A stretch of 27,650 nt of DNA from Fastidiosibacter lacustris (lineage in GTDB: Bacteria; Pseudomonadota; Gammaproteobacteria; Francisellales; Francisellaceae): positions 1-27,650 of the forward strand of contig NZ_QLIR01000023.1 of the NCBI RefSeq assembly GCF_003428155.1, read 5' to 3'. Both the position numbers and the translations under genes were made by a program. Below, piece by piece: positions 126-27,650 of this stretch (position 1 is its first letter; each line of letters starts with the position of its first letter). Under the pieces are notes generated by a model. That model saw only the letters and a program-made list of their open reading frames with translations, was not told the origin of the DNA and searched no databases.

Positions 126-602
126 TTATTTATGTATTTTACTCATAAAATGAGGTATTTCTCTATTTATCCAAGTCATTTTCATGACCTTTGATTTATT
201 AATATAATATTGTTGATAGCTTGCTACGACATCCTTGATATCATTATCAGTTACTTTCAATGTCCAAGAAAAAGTTGTATTTGCCAAGGCTTTTGGCACA
301 TTAGATAGTATACCGCATAACATTTCAGACTTATGTAACTTTTGATAGCGGTATGTATATTCAGAACACAGCGCTATATAATGTTTGAGTAACCATTTAT
401 AATGCGCTTCGCTTTCTATCACCCATAATACGCAAGGATGGTTTTGGTGTGTTAAAGAATACAAAGCTTGATCATTACTGCCTGATAATCTGTGTACTGA
501 ACTTAAAATTTGTGCAGATTCTAATACCATTTTTACTACATGCTTATCACATTGATATCTAGCTGCCAAACTAGGATCTTTATCTAAAAAAAAGATATTC
601 AT
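126..602 (-). CDS. Conserved hypothetical protein, 158 aa, function unknown
   Basis: Clean ATG ORF. N-terminal motif FFLDKDPSLAARYQCDKHVVKMVLESAQILS and later HPCVLWV...EYTYRY...HKS look like conserved enzyme-like motifs. I only vaguely recall similar proteins in phages and intracellular bacteria and cannot name the family. The start overlaps the upstream ORF by 23 nt and the stop lies 1-2 nt from the 5S 3' end. Confidence 0.65.
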   Translation of the reverse strand: MNIFFLDKDPSLAARYQCDKHVVKMVLESAQILSSVHRLSGSNDQALYSLTHQNHPCVLWVIESEAHYKWLLKHYIALCSEYTYRYQKLHKSEMLCGILSNVPKALANTTFSWTLKVTDNDIKDVVASYQQYYINKSKVMKMTWINREIPHFMSKIHK

Positions 603-1317
603 AGCATCTCAACCTGCAAATTATTTTTCCTAAAGTAAGCTTCCAGTTCTTCATAAGTGTCAAACCATTAAACGCATCATAACTTAATGTCATTTCTCCT
701 AGTTTAGTAACATTGCCATTACTATCATATTCAACATGATGGCTTTTATCATCAGTGTAACTGTTAAGCTTATTGTTATATTGGCTAAACTGTATTTTGC
801 CATTGATGCTACTGATACGCTTAGGGCGCTGTTTGTGGTCATAGCTAAAATGTAAGGTTAAACCACCTAAATATTTAACTTCTTCGGGTAATCTATGTTG
901 ATTCCATCGGTAATTAGCTTCTTCATAAATCGTTGAACCATGAGCTATTTTTTTCTGACGCAATAAACCCTTGTCATCATAATAGGTACTGACATTTACA
1001 CTCTTGCTTTTAACCTCTTTAGGAAAAACGTGGCAGTCATGGCTATGCTCAAATAGTTTCTGCCCAATTAGCTGCCCACGATCAAAGGTTTTTATTTGAT
1101 ATTCAATTGGATTTGGACTGTTAACAATATAATCCATCCTTTCAAGATGCATATTGCCATTAACGGGATTGACTGGATCACCAACTAAATGACAAGGATC
1201 TCCCAATTCCGAAAAAATATCTCGAGTATTTAAGTCTTTGCGGCAGGCATAGCTGCTTTCGATACAAAGAAATAAACCAGAGAGATAAGTAATCGTTATT
1301 AAAGCTTTTTTGACCAA
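580..1317 (-). CDS. Short secreted YD-repeat (RHS-family) protein, possibly a C-terminally truncated remnant
   Basis: N-terminal signal-like segment (KKALITITYLSGLFLCIESSYAC). An Rhs-type entry motif is present (GDPVNPVNGNMHLERMDY). YD repeats include YYDDKGLL, FSYDHKQRP and YDSNGNVTKLGEMTLSYDAFNGL. At 245 aa it is far shorter than typical Rhs/WapA proteins (>1000 aa), and the last ~25 aa (KNWKLTLGKIICRLRCYEYLFFR) look non-native. The start codon is TTG, so the start is uncertain. Confidence 0.55.
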   Translation of the reverse strand: MVKKALITITYLSGLFLCIESSYACRKDLNTRDIFSELGDPCHLVGDPVNPVNGNMHLERMDYIVNSPNPIEYQIKTFDRGQLIGQKLFEHSHDCHVFPKEVKSKSVNVSTYYDDKGLLRQKKIAHGSTIYEEANYRWNQHRLPEEVKYLGGLTLHFSYDHKQRPKRISSINGKIQFSQYNNKLNSYTDDKSHHVEYDSNGNVTKLGEMTLSYDAFNGLTLMKNWKLTLGKIICRLRCYEYLFFR

Positions 1318-6590: not shown

Positions 6591-7328
6591 TTAACGAGTA
6601 CGCTTTATTTCGGCAAGGACGTTATTCGATTTTTCAAGTTGCTTTCTGTAATATTCTAAATTTTGCTCGGCCTCACGCTTTAATTGACGAATTTGACCAT
6701 TTAAAAAAGCAATTTGTCCTTCTAAGGCATCGCGTAGGTCAGAAATGCGTTGAGTTGTTTGTTCTTTAAGTGCTTCGGCATAAATGCGTGCCTCTTTTGC
6801 CACCTGCTCAGCAGATTCACGTCGAGTTTGTTCCTTAACAAGAGCGGCATAAAGCTTGCGCACCTTGATTTCGGGATTACTTTCATTAAGTACCATGCTC
6901 CACTCATCTGACATACTGCTGAGGATATCGCTGCTTAATGATTGTGAACTTGCTAATAGCGCTTCAATCATAGGATCGGTATTTTTTGTGACTGTGACTT
7001 TGTTATGAGTATAATCAGAGGATTGAGTTTGATTTAATTGGGTGACTCCTTTTCCCTGATTTGCTTGTGTTTTTTCTAAAGCAGTTGCTTGAGTTATTGG
7101 CTGCATGTTTTCTTCTTTTTTAGAGGTAATTAATACTTCTTGTTTGATATTTTGAGGTACAGCGTTTTCCTGCTCGTCTCGCCATTGTTTTAAAAATTTA
7201 CTGATGGTGGTGGGACTGCCACGACCTATTGTATCTCTAACATTGTTGATGCTAGGTTTATTGCCTTGTGCATGCAAAGTTGCGATTGCGTTTAGTATAT
7301 CTTGGTAAGATAATCCTGGGCTAGCCAT
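6591..7328 (-). CDS. KfrA_N-like DNA-binding protein with a Q/T-rich linker and C-terminal coiled coil
   Basis: LSYQDILNAIATLHAQGNKPSINNVRDTIGRGSPTTISKFLKQWRDEQ follows the KfrA N-terminal pattern (G..P....VR...G.GS..TI...L..WR). The C-terminal ~100 aa have charged heptad-like character (EQVAKEARIYAEALKEQ...LKREAEQNLEYYRKQLEK). I prefer the ATG at 7328 (MASPGLS) over the track start at 7379. Confidence 0.6.
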   Translation of the reverse strand: MASPGLSYQDILNAIATLHAQGNKPSINNVRDTIGRGSPTTISKFLKQWRDEQENAVPQNIKQEVLITSKKEENMQPITQATALEKTQANQGKGVTQLNQTQSSDYTHNKVTVTKNTDPMIEALLASSQSLSSDILSSMSDEWSMVLNESNPEIKVRKLYAALVKEQTRRESAEQVAKEARIYAEALKEQTTQRISDLRDALEGQIAFLNGQIRQLKREAEQNLEYYRKQLEKSNNVLAEIKRTR

Positions 7329-7531
7329 GGTATTTGTATCCTTATTGATTATTTGATTATATAGCCTAACGAGAAACATTAGAGTTATTCACTAAAAACT
7401 GCCGAAATTATAGCAAGATATTTGTTTGCGTCAAACATTCATATGCGGCGAGCATATATTTTGTTATGATAGTGGGCAAATTTATTAAATGCCTTGATGC
7501 AGCCTAACTAAAATTATCAAGAGGAAATAAT

Positions 7532-13004: not shown

Positions 13005-13207
13005 GAGGTTATCCAATATGATGCTTGGTTTTTATTAAACTTACAAATACTTAAGGCGTAATGGTAGCGAAATTTTAGGATTGAAACCAGGGCGTAAATC
13101 GATTTTCTTTAAGTTTTAAAGAAGTAGGAGATGCTAATTTCATTTACGATTTTTTTATCTTTTATGCTACCATGAGCCATCTTTGTCCCAGATGGGTAGG
13201 ATTTCTT

Positions 13208-13459
13208 ATGGCAATTGATATACAACAAGATTTAGATCAAGAGGTGCTTGCGCGCGTGCGTTGGGCAGCAAGGCGCGGCATGTTAGAGCTTGATTTGATG
13301 TTATCTTCTTATATTGAGAGTGAATATTTAAAGGCTTCTAATGAAGAAAAACAAGCGTTCCACACTCTGTTAGAGTGTGAAGATCAAGACTTATTTAATT
13401 GGTTTATCAAGTCTAAACCAGTGGATAAAAAACACCAAAAAATGGTAGCAAAAATTTTA
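13208..13459 (+). other. sdhE: SdhE/YgfY (Sdh5-family FAD assembly factor) domain, encoded in frame with putA
   Basis: RVRWAARRGMLELDLMLSSYIESEYLKASNEEKQAFHTLLECEDQDLFNWFI...MVAKIL aligns along its length with E. coli SdhE as recalled ([25 protein letters not shown]...[22 protein letters not shown]...MVRLIQ). This includes the RGxxE motif. Confidence 0.8.
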
Positions 13460-16400
13460 ACGATTAAACAGCAAGGTACTCAAAGACAAGCACAAGATGC
13501 TACAGTTGAAAGCTGTGATGATTTGCAAGGTGAGGTAAGCATGATTTTAGATCGCATAGATAAATTTGATCAATCCCCTTTAATGCAAGAGGTTTCTAAG
13601 TATTGGTTATGTAACGAGAAGACAATCGTTGAAAAGCTTGCTAAAGAAGCTGCGCTTACAGAAAACGAACGCTTGAAAATACAGGATATTGCCAGTGGTT
13701 TGGTTGCAAGCGTACGTGAAACTCGGTTAAGTAAAAGTGGGCTAGATGCCTTTATGACCAAATATGATTTATCAAGTGATGAGGGTATCGTCCTCATGTG
13801 TTTGGCTGAAGCATTATTGCGTGTGCCTGATAAATATACAGCAGACAAGCTAATTAAAGACAAACTCACAAGTGCGAATTGGCAGGAACATGTTGGTGAC
13901 AGTGAGTATTTGTTTGTTAATGCAGCAACGTGGTGTTTGATGTTGACTGGTAAAATTTTAAAACCAGAGCTATATCAAAATAAGTTTAAAACCGTGCTCA
14001 AGAACTTCTTAGATAAGCGTTCGCGCCCTGTGGTGCGTCGCGCGGTTATGCACGCGATGAAAATCTTAGGTCAGCAGTATGTAATGGGTGAAACGATTGA
14101 AAAAGCCTTAAAGCGTGCTAAAGAGAAAGAAGAAATCGGCTTTACTTATTCATATGATATGTTAGGTGAGGCAGCAACGACGATGGCAGATGCTGAATTC
14201 TACTACAACGAATACCATAAAGCGATTGAGGCAATTGGTAAAGCTGCGCATAAATATAGTGTACGTACTAATCCAGGCATTTCTGTGAAGTTATCAGCAC
14301 TTCACCCACGTTATAAAGTTGCACAAGTAGATCGTGTACACCTTGAGATGTATCCAAAGCTCTTAAAACTTGTTGAATTAGCACAAAGCTATAATATCGG
14401 TTTAAATATCGATGCCGAAGAAACAGAGCGTTTAGAGCTTTCTCTTGAACTTGTTAAGCGACTTGCGTATGAGAGAAAATTACAAGGCTTTGAAGGTATT
14501 GGTATCGTGGTGCAAGCATATCAAAAACGTGCAAGTTTTGTACTCGATTATTTAATTGATTTGGCAGAGCAAACAGGTCATAGATTCATGATTCGTTTGG
14601 TTAAAGGTGCATATTGGGATTCAGAGATTAAACGTGCTCAAGTGGAGGGCTTAGAAGATTACCCAGTATTTACTCATAAGTGTTATACTGATCTTTCCTA
14701 CCAAGCATGTGTTAAAAAAATATTTAACCATACGAAGCATATTTATCCACAATTTGCCACGCATAATGCGTATACAACAGCATTGGTGATGCACTTAGCG
14801 GGAGAATACAAAGACTATGAGTTTCAATGTCTTCATGGTATGGGTGATGCACTTTACGATCATGTGGTTGGTAAGAGCAATTTTAATATACCTTGTCGAA
14901 TTTACGCTCCTGTTGGTACATATAAGCACTTATTACCTTATTTAGTAAGGCGATTATTGGAAAATGGTGCCAACTCGTCATTTGTGCATCGTATCGTTGA
15001 TGAAAAAACACCGATTGAAAGCTTAGTAGAAGACCCAGTGCAAAAAGCTGAGTGTTTAGGCTTTTTACCTCATTTGCAAATTGCATTACCGGTTAATATG
15101 TTTGGAGAAGAAAGAATGAATTCTAAAAGTTATAACTTAAATGATACCAGAACCCTTGAGAAACTTGCTTTACAGATGAGTCAGTTTGATCATAATGATT
15201 ATATTGCTAGACCCTTAGTTGTCGGTGTTGACACTTCTAAACTGGTGGCAGAAAACATTATTAATCCTGCTAATAATCAAGTATTTGGTAAAGTATATAA
15301 TGCTAATAAAGCTATTGCTCAAATAGCAATGAAAGTGGCACATACTGCATTTGATAGCTGGAGTTTAGTTAATGCAAATAAGCGCGCTCAAGCACTAGAG
15401 AAATGCGCAAATTTATTGGAAGAAAATATGCCAAAATTTATGGCAATTGCTGTGCGTGAAGCAGGTAAAACACTTGCAAGTGCTTTAGCAGAAGTGCGTG
15501 AAGCCGTTGATTTTTGTCGTTACTATGCCGCACAAGCCAAAGCTGAATTTGCAAATCCTAAGACACTTCCAGGACCTACTGGTGAGTTAAATCAAATTAG
15601 CTTGCATGGTAGAGGAGCTGTTGTTTGTATTAGTCCTTGGAATTTCCCGTTAGCGATTTTCTTAGGTGAGGTAACAGCTGCTCTTGCCGCAGGAAATACC
15701 GTTGTGGCTAAACCTGCTGAACAAACGCCAATTATTGCTTATGAAGCAATAAAATTATTACATGAAGCGGGTATTCCTAAAGATGTTGTGCAACTTGTGC
15801 CTGGCACAGGAGAAGAAGTGGGTGCAGCCTTAACCCAAGATCTACACGTTGCAGGAGTAGTTTTCACTGGTTCTACCGACGTTGCAAGACTTATTCAACG
15901 AACACTTTCTGCCAAAGAAGGTGCGATTGTACCATTTATTGCAGAAACAGGTGGTCAAAATGTGATGGTGGTGGACTCGTCGTCCTTACCAGAGCAAGTG
16001 GTACAAGACGTTATTTCATCAGCTTTTGATAGTGCAGGTCAACGTTGTTCTGCGTTAAGAGTGTTGTATTTGCAACAAGAGATTGCTGATACGGTTGTTA
16101 CCATGTTAAAAGGTGCGATGAATGAACTTAAGGTCCATGATCCTGCATTTATTGAAACTGATATAGGACCTGTAATTGACCAAGAAGCACAAGCAAATCT
16201 TAAAGCACATATCGATCATATGCGTAAATCTGCCAAGCTTGTTCATGAGATTGCAAGTGATAAGACCTTAGAAAAAGGTAACTATATTTATCCTGTGGTG
16301 TTTGAAATCGATAGTATCAAAGCACTTAAGCGAGAAGTATTTGGTCCTGTATTACATATCATACGCTTTAAGGCTGATGAGATGGACAAAGTTGCCAAAG

Positions 16401-16684
16401 ACGTTAATTCAACAGGTTATGGTTTAACTTTTGGTATCCATAGTCGGATTCAAGAAACCATAGATTTTTTTATAAAGCACATTCGTGTCGGCAATATGTA
16501 CATTAACCGTAATATCGTTGGTGCAGTTGTTGGCGTACAGCCATTTGGTGGACAAGGTTTATCTGGAACAGGTCCTAAAGCAGGTGGACCACTTTATTTA
16601 CATCGCCTAGCAGTTGAGCGCTCAATTAGTATCAATACAACAGCATCAGGTGGTAATGCGTCATTGATGAGTTTGGAGCAGTAA
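13208..16684 (+). CDS. putA: Bifunctional proline dehydrogenase / L-glutamate-gamma-semialdehyde (P5C) dehydrogenase PutA with an in-frame N-terminal SdhE-like module
   Basis: PRODH part: LMCLAEALLRVPD, YSYDMLGEAA, LVKGAYWDSEIKRAQ. P5CDH part: FIAETGGQN (catalytic Glu) and AGQRCSALRVL (catalytic Cys). I prefer the start at ATG 13208, which has AGGA ~6 nt upstream, over the track start at 13172. No in-frame stop occurs between the SdhE-like segment and PutA. Confidence 0.9.
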   Translation: MAIDIQQDLDQEVLARVRWAARRGMLELDLMLSSYIESEYLKASNEEKQAFHTLLECEDQDLFNWFIKSKPVDKKHQKMVAKILTIKQQGTQRQAQDATVESCDDLQGEVSMILDRIDKFDQSPLMQEVSKYWLCNEKTIVEKLAKEAALTENERLKIQDIASGLVASVRETRLSKSGLDAFMTKYDLSSDEGIVLMCLAEALLRVPDKYTADKLIKDKLTSANWQEHVGDSEYLFVNAATWCLMLTGKILKPELYQNKFKTVLKNFLDKRSRPVVRRAVMHAMKILGQQYVMGETIEKALKRAKEKEEIGFTYSYDMLGEAATTMADAEFYYNEYHKAIEAIGKAAHKYSVRTNPGISVKLSALHPRYKVAQVDRVHLEMYPKLLKLVELAQSYNIGLNIDAEETERLELSLELVKRLAYERKLQGFEGIGIVVQAYQKRASFVLDYLIDLAEQTGHRFMIRLVKGAYWDSEIKRAQVEGLEDYPVFTHKCYTDLSYQACVKKIFNHTKHIYPQFATHNAYTTALVMHLAGEYKDYEFQCLHGMGDALYDHVVGKSNFNIPCRIYAPVGTYKHLLPYLVRRLLENGANSSFVHRIVDEKTPIESLVEDPVQKAECLGFLPHLQIALPVNMFGEERMNSKSYNLNDTRTLEKLALQMSQFDHNDYIARPLVVGVDTSKLVAENIINPANNQVFGKVYNANKAIAQIAMKVAHTAFDSWSLVNANKRAQALEKCANLLEENMPKFMAIAVREAGKTLASALAEVREAVDFCRYYAAQAKAEFANPKTLPGPTGELNQISLHGRGAVVCISPWNFPLAIFLGEVTAALAAGNTVVAKPAEQTPIIAYEAIKLLHEAGIPKDVVQLVPGTGEEVGAALTQDLHVAGVVFTGSTDVARLIQRTLSAKEGAIVPFIAETGGQNVMVVDSSSLPEQVVQDVISSAFDSAGQRCSALRVLYLQQEIADTVVTMLKGAMNELKVHDPAFIETDIGPVIDQEAQANLKAHIDHMRKSAKLVHEIASDKTLEKGNYIYPVVFEIDSIKALKREVFGPVLHIIRFKADEMDKVAKDVNSTGYGLTFGIHSRIQETIDFFIKHIRVGNMYINRNIVGAVVGVQPFGGQGLSGTGPKAGGPLYLHRLAVERSISINTTASGGNASLMSLEQ
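13531..13543 (+). promoter_or_regulatory. Possible internal ribosome-binding site plus ATG for a stand-alone PutA
   Basis: GGTGAGGTAAGC precedes ATG (13541), i.e. a GAGG Shine-Dalgarno ~6 nt upstream of an in-frame Met, at about the position where PutA homology should begin. Confidence 0.3.
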
Positions 16685-26781: not shown

Positions 26782-27018
26782 TTATTGCTTATTTTGTAAA
26801 TCCTGGGCAAGCTTCCTAAGTTCTTCAACAGAATACTCAAACTCGGGACCTTCCTCCATAGCCATCAGCTGGAGTAGTATCTCATCAAGATCAGGAGCCA
26901 ACCCAACTCCATGATCTTGATAAAGCTGGAATGCAACGCGAGCGATTCTTACGACGTCATATCCTTTATCCAGCTCAGCCTGCAACACACTACTTAGTTC
27001 TTTTGCAGTAAACGTCAT
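26782..27018 (-). CDS. Putative immunity protein for the upstream toxin domain (78 aa, acidic, predicted helical)
   Basis: Its ATG overlaps the toxin stop in the ATGA arrangement (..GGG TTA TGA / ATG ACG..). It is small and acidic (EEGPEFEYSVEEL) with no signal peptide, and its composition matches the toxin ORF rather than the neighbouring lpd. The assignment rests on context only. Confidence 0.55.
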   Translation of the reverse strand: MTFTAKELSSVLQAELDKGYDVVRIARVAFQLYQDHGVGLAPDLDEILLQLMAMEEGPEFEYSVEELRKLAQDLQNKQ

Positions 27019-27650
27019 AACCCTAACTCCCTAGTAACTGGAGGATAATGTTGAGAATTAACGGTTTGGCCATTAATTGACTTGGGGTGCACCCTGTTCA
27101 CACTCCCTGCATGATCGTAACTTTCCATCCACTGCCTTACGTTTCCATTTTGGGGGTTATGCTCGGTAACAAAAGAAGCACCTCGAGTTGGACCTTCCGT
27201 TCTAGCAGGAACTTCCTGGGTGTAATAACGAACGCGCCCATCTGGTAATTGCCGTGTAGTAGCTGCATTTTGCTGTGCTTTCTCTAGTCCAGATAATTTC
27301 GCTCTAAGAGCTGATTGCGCGTTTACGTTTTCAGCACCACTACTTACCTTCCTCGCAACCGTCCCACTTTCCTTAATCACCCTTGGCAATGCCACCTTTG
27401 CCATTGCCTTGCCACCTCTGACGGTGGCACTTAACCCCGCTTTCGGTATTCCCCCTAGCACATTCGCTGCAATTAAACCTGCATAATGCGCTAACTTATG
27501 CTTGTCATCGTAACTAAAGTCCATTAATCCAAAACTTATTTCATTGACAAAACCCCCACCAAACGCTGTCACTGTGCCATAACAATACGATAAAAACTGC
27601 CAGCCAAAATGTCGCGCCAATGCCCCCAGCGGATCTGCCTGGTATTCACG
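27015..27650 (-). CDS. C-terminal toxin region of a polymorphic toxin (Rhs-like or related), 5'-truncated by the window edge
   Basis: The reading frame stays open to nt 27650 (upstream residues REYQADPLGAL precede the TTG the track calls as the start). DPLGAL resembles the DPxGL demarcation motif at the end of Rhs cores. A Gly-rich hydrophobic segment comes next, then a hydrophilic terminal domain (LPDGRVRYYTQEVPARTEGPTRGASFVTEHNPQNGNVRQWMESYDHAGSVNRVHPK). A coupled small ORF follows and G+C is higher. Confidence 0.65.
   Translation of the reverse strand, partial: REYQADPLGALARHFGWQFLSYCYGTVTAFGGGFVNEISFGLMDFSYDDKHKLAHYAGLIAANVLGGIPKAGLSATVRGGKAMAKVALPRVIKESGTVARKVSSGAENVNAQSALRAKLSGLEKAQQNAATTRQLPDGRVRYYTQEVPARTEGPTRGASFVTEHNPQNGNVRQWMESYDHAGSVNRVHPKSINGQTVNSQHYPPVTRELGL

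Follow-up and report, generated by a model that had tools for sequence, protein, structure and literature searches.

The window analysed here, a stretch of 27,650 nucleotides (nt) from Fastidiosibacter lacustris (NCBI RefSeq assembly GCF_003428155.1, contig NZ_QLIR01000023.1, positions 1 to 27,650), very probably closes with the 3′-terminal 211 codons of a gene for a polymorphic toxin of the Rhs (YD-repeat) type, about 1015 amino acids (aa) long, and with its cognate immunity gene. The type of system is ordinary; its toxin and immunity families are uncharacterised. An initial annotation, made from the sequence alone, had described this locus, and every detail of that description that could be checked agrees with the sequence, i.e., the open frame, a DPLGAL motif, a hydrophilic terminal domain, an ATGA overlap and a 78-aa open reading frame (ORF).

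Both genes lie on the minus strand. The 3′ end of the toxin gene occupies positions 27015 to 27650, where its frame runs past the window edge, and is closed by a TGA at 27017-27015; the F. lacustris genome contig appears to end at this edge. The TGA overlaps the ATG of the immunity gene (26782-27018) in the sequence ATGA (27015-27018), and a putative Shine-Dalgarno sequence, AGGGAG (27027-27032), is located 8 nt 5′ of the ATG, within the last codons of the toxin. The toxin ORF is not a product of chance, since the fragment is 100% identical to an F. lacustris protein (P0001) that is likewise cut at the same point, and since its C-terminal half matches about 90 proteins with E = 1e-25 to 1e-63. 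The same holds for the small ORF, as we found 35 homologues of its 78-aa product.

The fragment is divided into a pre-toxin linker (residues 1-96, positions 27363-27650), which ends in ...ALPRVIKESG and is constant among Fastidiosibacter rhs paralogues, and a toxin domain of an unnamed family (residues 101-211, positions 27018-27350). Residues ~101-211 are hydrophilic and basic (isoelectric point, pI, 9.8), free of Cys, and contain LPDGRVRYY, GPTRGASFVTEH and NVRQWMESYDHAGSVNRVHPK. Residues ~12-96 of the linker had been described as Gly-rich and hydrophobic. They are indeed Gly-rich, and mildly hydrophobic, but a membrane segment is not supported: in 19-residue windows, the Kyte-Doolittle mean peaks at 1.28, too low for a canonical transmembrane helix by the usual threshold.

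The delivery part of the protein, which the initial annotation had placed outside the window, can be read from a second genome. The exact sequence of the immunity protein is also encoded on a 29-kb contig (L001) of assembly GCA_024208055.1 (JAMBMW), from 'Candidatus Nebulobacter yamunensis', an obligate Euplotes endosymbiont that is almost indistinguishable from F. lacustris (PMC9837558). The paper reporting this genome does not mention Rhs or toxins (PMC9837558). The window and L001 differ by 15 mismatches across the window's last 1650 bases, and L001 prolongs the toxin ORF by 790 residues upstream; the gene is intact there, with a full-length protein of about 1015 aa. Within these 790 residues, all outside the window, three stretches match RHS_repeat (PF05593, E = 1e-30), and the RHS core is also recognised (PF03527, E = 8e-8). 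The core ends in ...YAYAENNPVNIVDPLGL, a motif that is preceded by Asp at distances of 22 and 25 residues, and the canonical ...AENNPVNIVDPLGL precedes DPLGAL, with 17 residues between them. Because RHS repeats, core and DPLGL all lie upstream in L001, a delivery scaffold is present rather than absent. However, the position assigned to its boundary needs correction. DPLGAL (fragment residues 6-11, positions 27618-27635) had been taken as the Rhs boundary; the canonical NNPVNIVDPLGL sits 13 residues (39 bases) past the window edge, in L001, and DPLGAL is a second DPxG motif within the C-terminal fragment.

The protein has the YD/RHS repeats of the Rhs family and a core ending in PxxxxDPxGL, at which cleavage is predicted. 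The N-terminus, which continues in L001 with the MRIKLPVLSRVCGILFILLSISTFTTYGA... known from paralogues, looks like a signal peptide, a resemblance judged by eye. A point against the overall reading is that there are no type VI secretion system (T6SS), PAAR, VgrG, CdiB or chaperone genes in the window or in L001, which ends 5′ of the gene start. The neighbours in both are housekeeping genes (lpdA, aceF, aceE, lpxK, msbA, pcnB, putA, leuS, icd and others). With such an N-terminus and such neighbours, the protein does not have, as far as L001 extends, the features of a T6SS-delivered Rhs effector. The GC content of the toxin-immunity module (26782-27650) is 43-49%, versus 37.7% for the rest of the window, which is consistent with a foreign, horizontally acquired origin.

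That the toxin is polymorphic, as had been proposed, is supported by the presence of the same linker with different toxins among paralogues and of the same domain on other carriers elsewhere. In four Fastidiosibacter paralogues (P0007, P0087, P0090 and P0091), the linker is common as far as ...ALPRV(I/V)KESG, beyond which the C-terminal domains differ: DUF4258 in P0007, 'polymorphic toxin type 37' in P0087, 'type 8' in P0090 and an unnamed domain in P0091. A variable C-terminal domain thus follows a constant scaffold, as in Rhs-family polymorphic toxins, and, given how far the paralogues share the linker, the variable junction lies about 115 residues after DPLGL rather than at DPLGL. The linker itself looks as if it has been exchanged among rhs paralogues by apparent gene conversion, since 12 of the 15 mismatches between the window and L001 cluster at 27356-27523, in the linker region, and L001 has the P0007 variant there.

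Some paralogues are internally deleted. These 'mini-Rhs' genes (P0091, at L086 8001-8573, P0002 and P0090) encode 170-220 aa and join a signal-peptide-like N-terminus and the first YD repeat (~83 aa) to the last ~20 linker residues and the toxin domain, with the whole Rhs shell missing. P0091 is probably real rather than an assembly end, as it is located in the middle of a 55-kb contig.

Scanning one genome per species confirmed 154 loci with the toxin domain; 80 of these, spanning ~10 phyla, were kept for locus analysis. An ORF lies directly downstream of the toxin domain in all 80 loci. It encodes 47-255 aa (74-84 aa in 68 loci), and overlaps of -4 or -1 bases predominate between the two genes. 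In 76 of the 80 loci, the downstream ORF matches a hidden Markov model (HMM) of the window's immunity family with E < 1e-3, and the remaining four ORFs are of similar size and have the same ...G.EFE.s..E(L/I) pattern. These results support the proposed toxin/immunity layout, with the ATGA overlap coupling the 78-aa ORF to the toxin. Pairwise identities of toxins and immunity proteins are correlated (r = 0.69, Mantel p ≤ 0.001), and the immunity proteins diverge much faster, with a mean identity of 31% versus 60% for the toxins. The 78-aa protein has a pI of 4.4, a net charge of about -8 and the conserved motif MEEGPEFE; it has neither a hydrophobic N-terminus nor a signal peptide, and AlphaFold models it as four helices (predicted local distance difference test, pLDDT, 93.2). 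An immunity gene immediately downstream is also what is expected of an Rhs-family polymorphic toxin, with protection here predicted from the arrangement of the genes.

Another pair of this family (P0002 and P0125) is encoded in the F. lacustris genome, on an 81-kb contig. Its toxin domain is 77% identical to that of the window pair and its immunity protein only 45% identical, a difference that suggests that the two pairs may have non-cross-protecting specificities. In Vibrio penaeicida, the pair is found as an orphan cassette downstream of a gene for a 2451-aa SpvB/Rhs protein, which is accompanied by a separate immunity gene, and many short copies elsewhere are found downstream of large ORFs encoding 1300-1900 aa.

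The toxin domain is widespread. Word-indexed searches retrieved 91 proteins with the fragment as query and 248 with a profile, and when 1.84 billion cluster representatives (50%-identity clusters) were scanned exhaustively by HMMER, a profile built from 25 sequences matched at least 729 clusters at E ≤ 1e-3, 233 of them at E ≤ 1e-30. Among the matches listed (n = 150), the domain reaches, or nearly reaches, the C-terminal end of its protein, and the longest of these proteins has 2359 aa. The carriers include Rhs proteins, CdiA (with TPS, DUF637, Fil_haemagg_2 and PT-VENN), Neisseria MafB, PT-HINT and PT-TG proteins, as well as proteins combining SpvB, FG-GAP, TcdB_mid and RHS domains. The 80 loci kept for analysis are from Gamma-, Beta- and Alphaproteobacteria, Chlamydiae, Planctomycetes, Fibrobacteria, Acidobacteria, Lentisphaerae, Flavobacteria, Dependentiae, Elusimicrobia and Oligoflexia. 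Carriers headed by DnaJ (1238-1364 aa) occur in Legionella shakespearei and in a Coxiellaceae metagenome-assembled genome (MAG).

Several of these loci have features of their own. Those of the confirmed or presumed DnaJ or ankyrin type (L071 2617-6333, L063 2245-6336, L070 2242-6336 and L049 3589-6360) all retain the immunity gene. L070 is labelled 'uncultured archaeon'; its ORF and downstream gene are nearly the same size as those of the Coxiellaceae counterpart, and it may be mis-binned. A 923-aa protein from a Francisellaceae MAG carries the toxin domain with a weak ankyrin match, below the Pfam cutoff. On plasmid pPNK of Protochlamydia naegleriophila (L005 3010-6636), an RHS repeat protein with the toxin domain and a 99-aa member of the immunity family come first in a row that continues with other RHS-core fragments and with small ORFs; this plasmid is mobilizable and belongs to an amoeba symbiont.

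Small proteins encoded by overlapping genes are also typical of type II toxin-antitoxin operons, and about 15 of the 80 loci encode only a domain of ~110-140 aa and a small ORF. The pair might accordingly be a non-exported toxin-antitoxin (addiction) module or, as the mini-Rhs genes in the same genome could indicate, a decaying remnant fused by chance to rhs. We regard this explanation as highly improbable. The toxin gene comes first, the domain lies at or near the C-terminus among the matches listed (n = 150) with many long, secreted carriers, and many of the short copies are located downstream of the 1300-1900-aa ORFs, two of which have YD motifs, as would be expected of orphan cassettes. 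The immunity protein has no DNA-binding family match above threshold (TFX_C reached E = 0.003-0.16, below its cutoff in Pfam). Large carriers, a C-terminal domain and an immunity protein of this kind do not fit a type II toxin-antitoxin system, and a remnant is difficult to reconcile with the intact full-length gene in L001.

The distribution of carriers raises the additional question of the toxin's victims. In this lineage, it could be aimed at eukaryotic cells, i.e., a ciliate or amoeba that is a host or predator, with the immunity protein only protecting the producer. L001 comes from the Euplotes endosymbiont (PMC9837558), and the domain occurs in protist-associated Protochlamydia, Parachlamydiales, Babeliales, Paracaedibacteraceae, Legionella and Coxiellaceae, with eukaryote-like DnaJ or Ank domains on some of these carriers. 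However, most carriers are classic interbacterial CdiA, MafB and Rhs proteins (in Pseudomonas, Neisseria, Acinetobacter and Vibrio), toxin-immunity pairs occur as orphan cassettes downstream of large genes, and the immunity proteins are strongly diversified, as bacterial kin discrimination predicts. A toxin directed at eukaryotes is therefore quite unlikely in our view. The two target ranges are nonetheless compatible if the substrate is universal, such that an anti-eukaryotic use does not conflict with the Rhs toxin-immunity model.

Neither protein could be assigned to a described family. For the window's toxin domain, Pfam (including the Ntox/Tox- and CdiA_C families) and NCBIfam gave no family at E ≤ 10, and no model of Pfam, NCBIfam, PHROGs or PADLOC matches the toxin or the immunity protein. 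No Pfam model is common to 25 diverse members of the toxin family or to 32 members of the immunity family. Searches of Protein Data Bank (PDB) chains by sequence and by profile found no match to either protein. With the AlphaFold models, Foldseek found nothing below E = 0.1 in PDB or below E = 0.01 in BFVD; query TM-scores did not exceed 0.36 with the toxin model or 0.44 with that of the immunity protein. The domain thus belongs to none of the named polymorphic-toxin C-terminal families, nor to an NCBIfam family, and the view that its toxin family is unrecognised is upheld by HMM, PDB sequence and fold searches alike. The profile searches and structure prediction that had been proposed as checks accordingly returned confident models, no named family and no fold match. 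Full-text literature searches for motifs of the toxin domain found nothing relevant. Three domain motifs were absent from the one supplement of a systematic toxin-discovery preprint in which we searched for motifs, and a keyword search of a PT-TG survey, whose new toxins come from Gram-positive species, gave no sign of the domain.

One candidate relationship of the immunity protein deserves mention. A colicin-D-type (ColD) immunity gene is located near a distant Yersinia relative of the toxin and shares an ...EFE.S..EL motif with the window's immunity family, and we therefore considered homology of the 78-aa protein to ColD immunity proteins. This idea was rejected: hhalign against PF09204 gave a probability of 0.3-0.4%, covering just the ...EFE.s..EL motif, and none of the 32 members matches PF09204. 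The locus concerned is on Yersinia pseudotuberculosis plasmid pYPSE1-1 (L004 4167-5815), where a gene for a 358-aa hypothetical protein ending in the distant domain relative is followed by a 67-aa ORF and then by the ColD-type immunity gene (PF09204, E = 1e-34).

Rhs and TcC proteins hold their C-terminal part inside the YD shell, where an aspartyl autoprotease cuts it free. By analogy, the YD shell would here enclose the C-terminal ~224 residues, the autoprotease would cut after DPLGL, and the released fragment of ~224 aa would be delivered into a neighbouring cell. In the producer's own cytoplasm, the immunity protein would bind the toxin, and the producer would thereby be protected. We infer a cytoplasmic target from the fact that the immunity protein has no export signal. 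The combination of a basic toxin with an acidic inhibitor indicates that this target is probably a nucleic acid.

Possible clues to the activity come from conservation and from the predicted structure. The toxin domains have a mean pairwise identity of 60%, and motifs of the domain are RVHPK, DGR[IV]RYY, TRGASFVTE and RQWMESY. In the numbering of the 111-aa domain, the following residues are conserved in at least 97% of 81 sequences: D37, G38, R39, R41, Y42, Y43, E46, G53, T55, R56, G57, E63, W74, E76, G82, P89, K90, G94, H101 and P103. The AlphaFold model (pLDDT 88.7) consists of a single N-terminal helix (9-28) and a five-stranded sheet (31-34, 40-43, 57-65, 70-78 and 84-92) that is antiparallel in the model. 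Conserved residues alternate along successive modelled strands (R39/R41/Y43, S59/E63, R72/W74/E76/Y78 and R86/H88/K90), and H101-Y102, near the C-terminus, is likewise conserved. Given this alternation, the conserved residues probably line one face of the sheet, with H101-Y102 nearby, if the sheet is a simple meander. We predict that the immunity protein uses its acidic MEEGPEFE motif to dock on this face, where the Arg, Lys and His residues lie.

The residues on this sheet face, the small size of the domain, and its lack of Cys and of any metal-ligand motif form the pattern of a metal-independent RNase, of which barnase, RNase Sa, YoeB, RelE, colicin E5 and other BECR-type toxins are examples. 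We tentatively suggest, with rather less than even confidence, that the toxin may be such an enzyme, with Glu and His as acid and base and with Arg/Lys on one face of the sheet. Like BECR and microbial RNases (barnase/barstar, RNase Sa, YoeB, colicin E5/D and the CdiA-CT tRNases), it is a basic, Cys-free domain of ~100 aa with an acidic inhibitor, and its N-terminal helix packs against a sheet that has the form of an antiparallel meander in the model. There are also short echoes of individual motifs: RxWxE recalls barnase R69-E73, LP..YY..TRG recalls RNase Sa 44-68, and an H-Y pair is located towards the C-terminus.

However, several results weigh against the RNase proposal. Neither PF00545 nor any Ntox/Tox family in Pfam matches the domain, and hhalign probabilities were 0.1-1.3%, whether the comparison was with RNase Sa, with barnase or with a barnase/Sa profile of 38 sequences (barnase, binase, RNase Sa and 35 barnase relatives from metagenomes). 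No RNase is among Foldseek's 50 best PDB matches, all of which have query TM-scores of at most 0.35, and the local echoes LP..YY..TRG and RxWxE would require alignment registers that are incompatible with each other. A distant subfamily (the 358-aa protein of Yersinia pseudotuberculosis and a remnant in Rhizobium sullae) retains only R39, R41, Y43, E63, R72, W74 and E76 and is without E46, R56 and H88, which leaves the catalytic set uncertain. Homology to barnase or RNase Sa, for which we had considered the extended echoes LP..YY..E..TRG and RxWxE...R...HY, was rejected, as hhalign is not significant with single sequences or with the profile. The domain does not show the combination of profile similarity, fold similarity and E...R...R...H-Y catalytic order that is expected of the microbial RNases (barnase/RNase Sa/T1, PF00545).

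With sequence, profile and fold searches giving no link to RNase families, it is possible, if somewhat doubtful, that the same architecture carries a toxin other than an RNase, i.e., a DNase, an enzyme that consumes NAD(P)+ or nucleotides, or one that modifies RNA or a translation factor; both its fold and its chemistry could be new. A mean identity of 60% across phyla, with ~20 of 105 residues near-invariant, would suit the recognition of a large, conserved partner. At the same time, a single-sheet domain of ~105 aa is smaller than the known ART, NADase and RSH folds require, and it has no HNH, PD-(D/E)xK, HExxH or Zn-deaminase motif, and no Cys. An extended version of this idea, which we consider unlikely, is that the 105-aa domain is a new fold with an activity new among interbacterial toxins, that the immunity protein is likewise a new fold, that the conservation reflects a universal cytoplasmic target, and that the warhead is also used against eukaryotes. 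The last element would be suggested by its recruitment onto proteins with a DnaJ or Ank head in Legionellales and onto Rhs proteins in endosymbionts of protists.

Returning to the Rhs toxin-immunity pair as a whole, it is instructive to compare it with known systems. Rhs toxins with RhsI immunity proteins include Dickeya dadantii RhsA/RhsB, T6SS Rhs effectors and the Tc-toxin component TcC. The present system is like these in its YD/RHS repeats, its core ending in PxxxxDPxGL, its variable C-terminal toxin and adjoining downstream immunity gene, its paralogues with different toxin domains, and its orphan cassettes. It is unlike them in that the protein is short (~1015 aa) with a signal-peptide-like N-terminus in place of PAAR, that no VgrG, T6SS or chaperone gene accompanies it in the window or L001, that a paralogue-constant linker separates DPLGL from the variable domain, such that the polymorphic junction is not at DPxGL, and that its toxin and immunity families are unnamed.

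Bacillus subtilis WapA is a Sec-exported, wall-associated YD-repeat toxin of a Gram-positive bacterium with tRNase C-terminal domains. Both systems combine an N-terminal secretion signal (here predicted) and a YD-repeat shell with a small toxin at the C-terminus, and in both the immunity protein is small and cytoplasmic. However, the producer here is Gram-negative, so that the toxin would also have to cross an outer membrane, and a Pfam search detected no sequence similarity between the toxin domains. The resemblance to BECR and microbial RNases is limited in that profile and fold matches are not significant, and unlike barstar, the window's immunity protein is an unrelated, all-helical bundle, whose resemblance to ColD immunity (PF09204) is also not significant. 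Finally, CdiA-CT/CdiI and Neisseria MafB/MafI systems of other genera use the same toxin domain and immunity family, on CdiA (TPS, Fil_haemagg, VENN) and MafB; the window's carrier differs in being an Rhs protein without a VENN motif or MafB domain. A MafB2-CT structure has been solved (PMC9970974); it has no detectable sequence similarity to the window domain, given that PDB sequence searches were empty.

Three other genes in the window attracted our attention. PutA (proline dehydrogenase/aldehyde dehydrogenase; 1170 aa, 13172-16684, plus strand) has an N-terminal Sdh5/SdhE flavinylation-factor domain (PF03937) at residues 27-97, a fusion that, to our knowledge, has not been met previously. 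A 262-aa protein with a plasmid-type KfrA_N DNA-binding domain (6591-7379, minus strand) is encoded among chromosomal housekeeping genes. A 245-aa ORF with a TTG start (580-1317, minus strand) matches no Pfam family at E ≤ 1e-5.

It is important to emphasize that the type of system is textbook, and the locus leaves the general view of Rhs toxins unchanged. The novelty lies in the cargo: a large, conserved toxin-immunity family that is used by multiple carriers and has no model in Pfam or NCBIfam and no structure in PDB, among the resources searched. The pair is abundant, with at least 729 clusters at 50% identity, 154 loci among genomes taken one per species and at least six delivery architectures, and its toxin keeps ~60% identity from Chlamydiae to Pseudomonas. 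Defining the family would annotate hundreds of CdiA, Rhs and MafB tips that are now 'hypothetical', and could add a compact, immunity-controlled enzyme to the toolbox.

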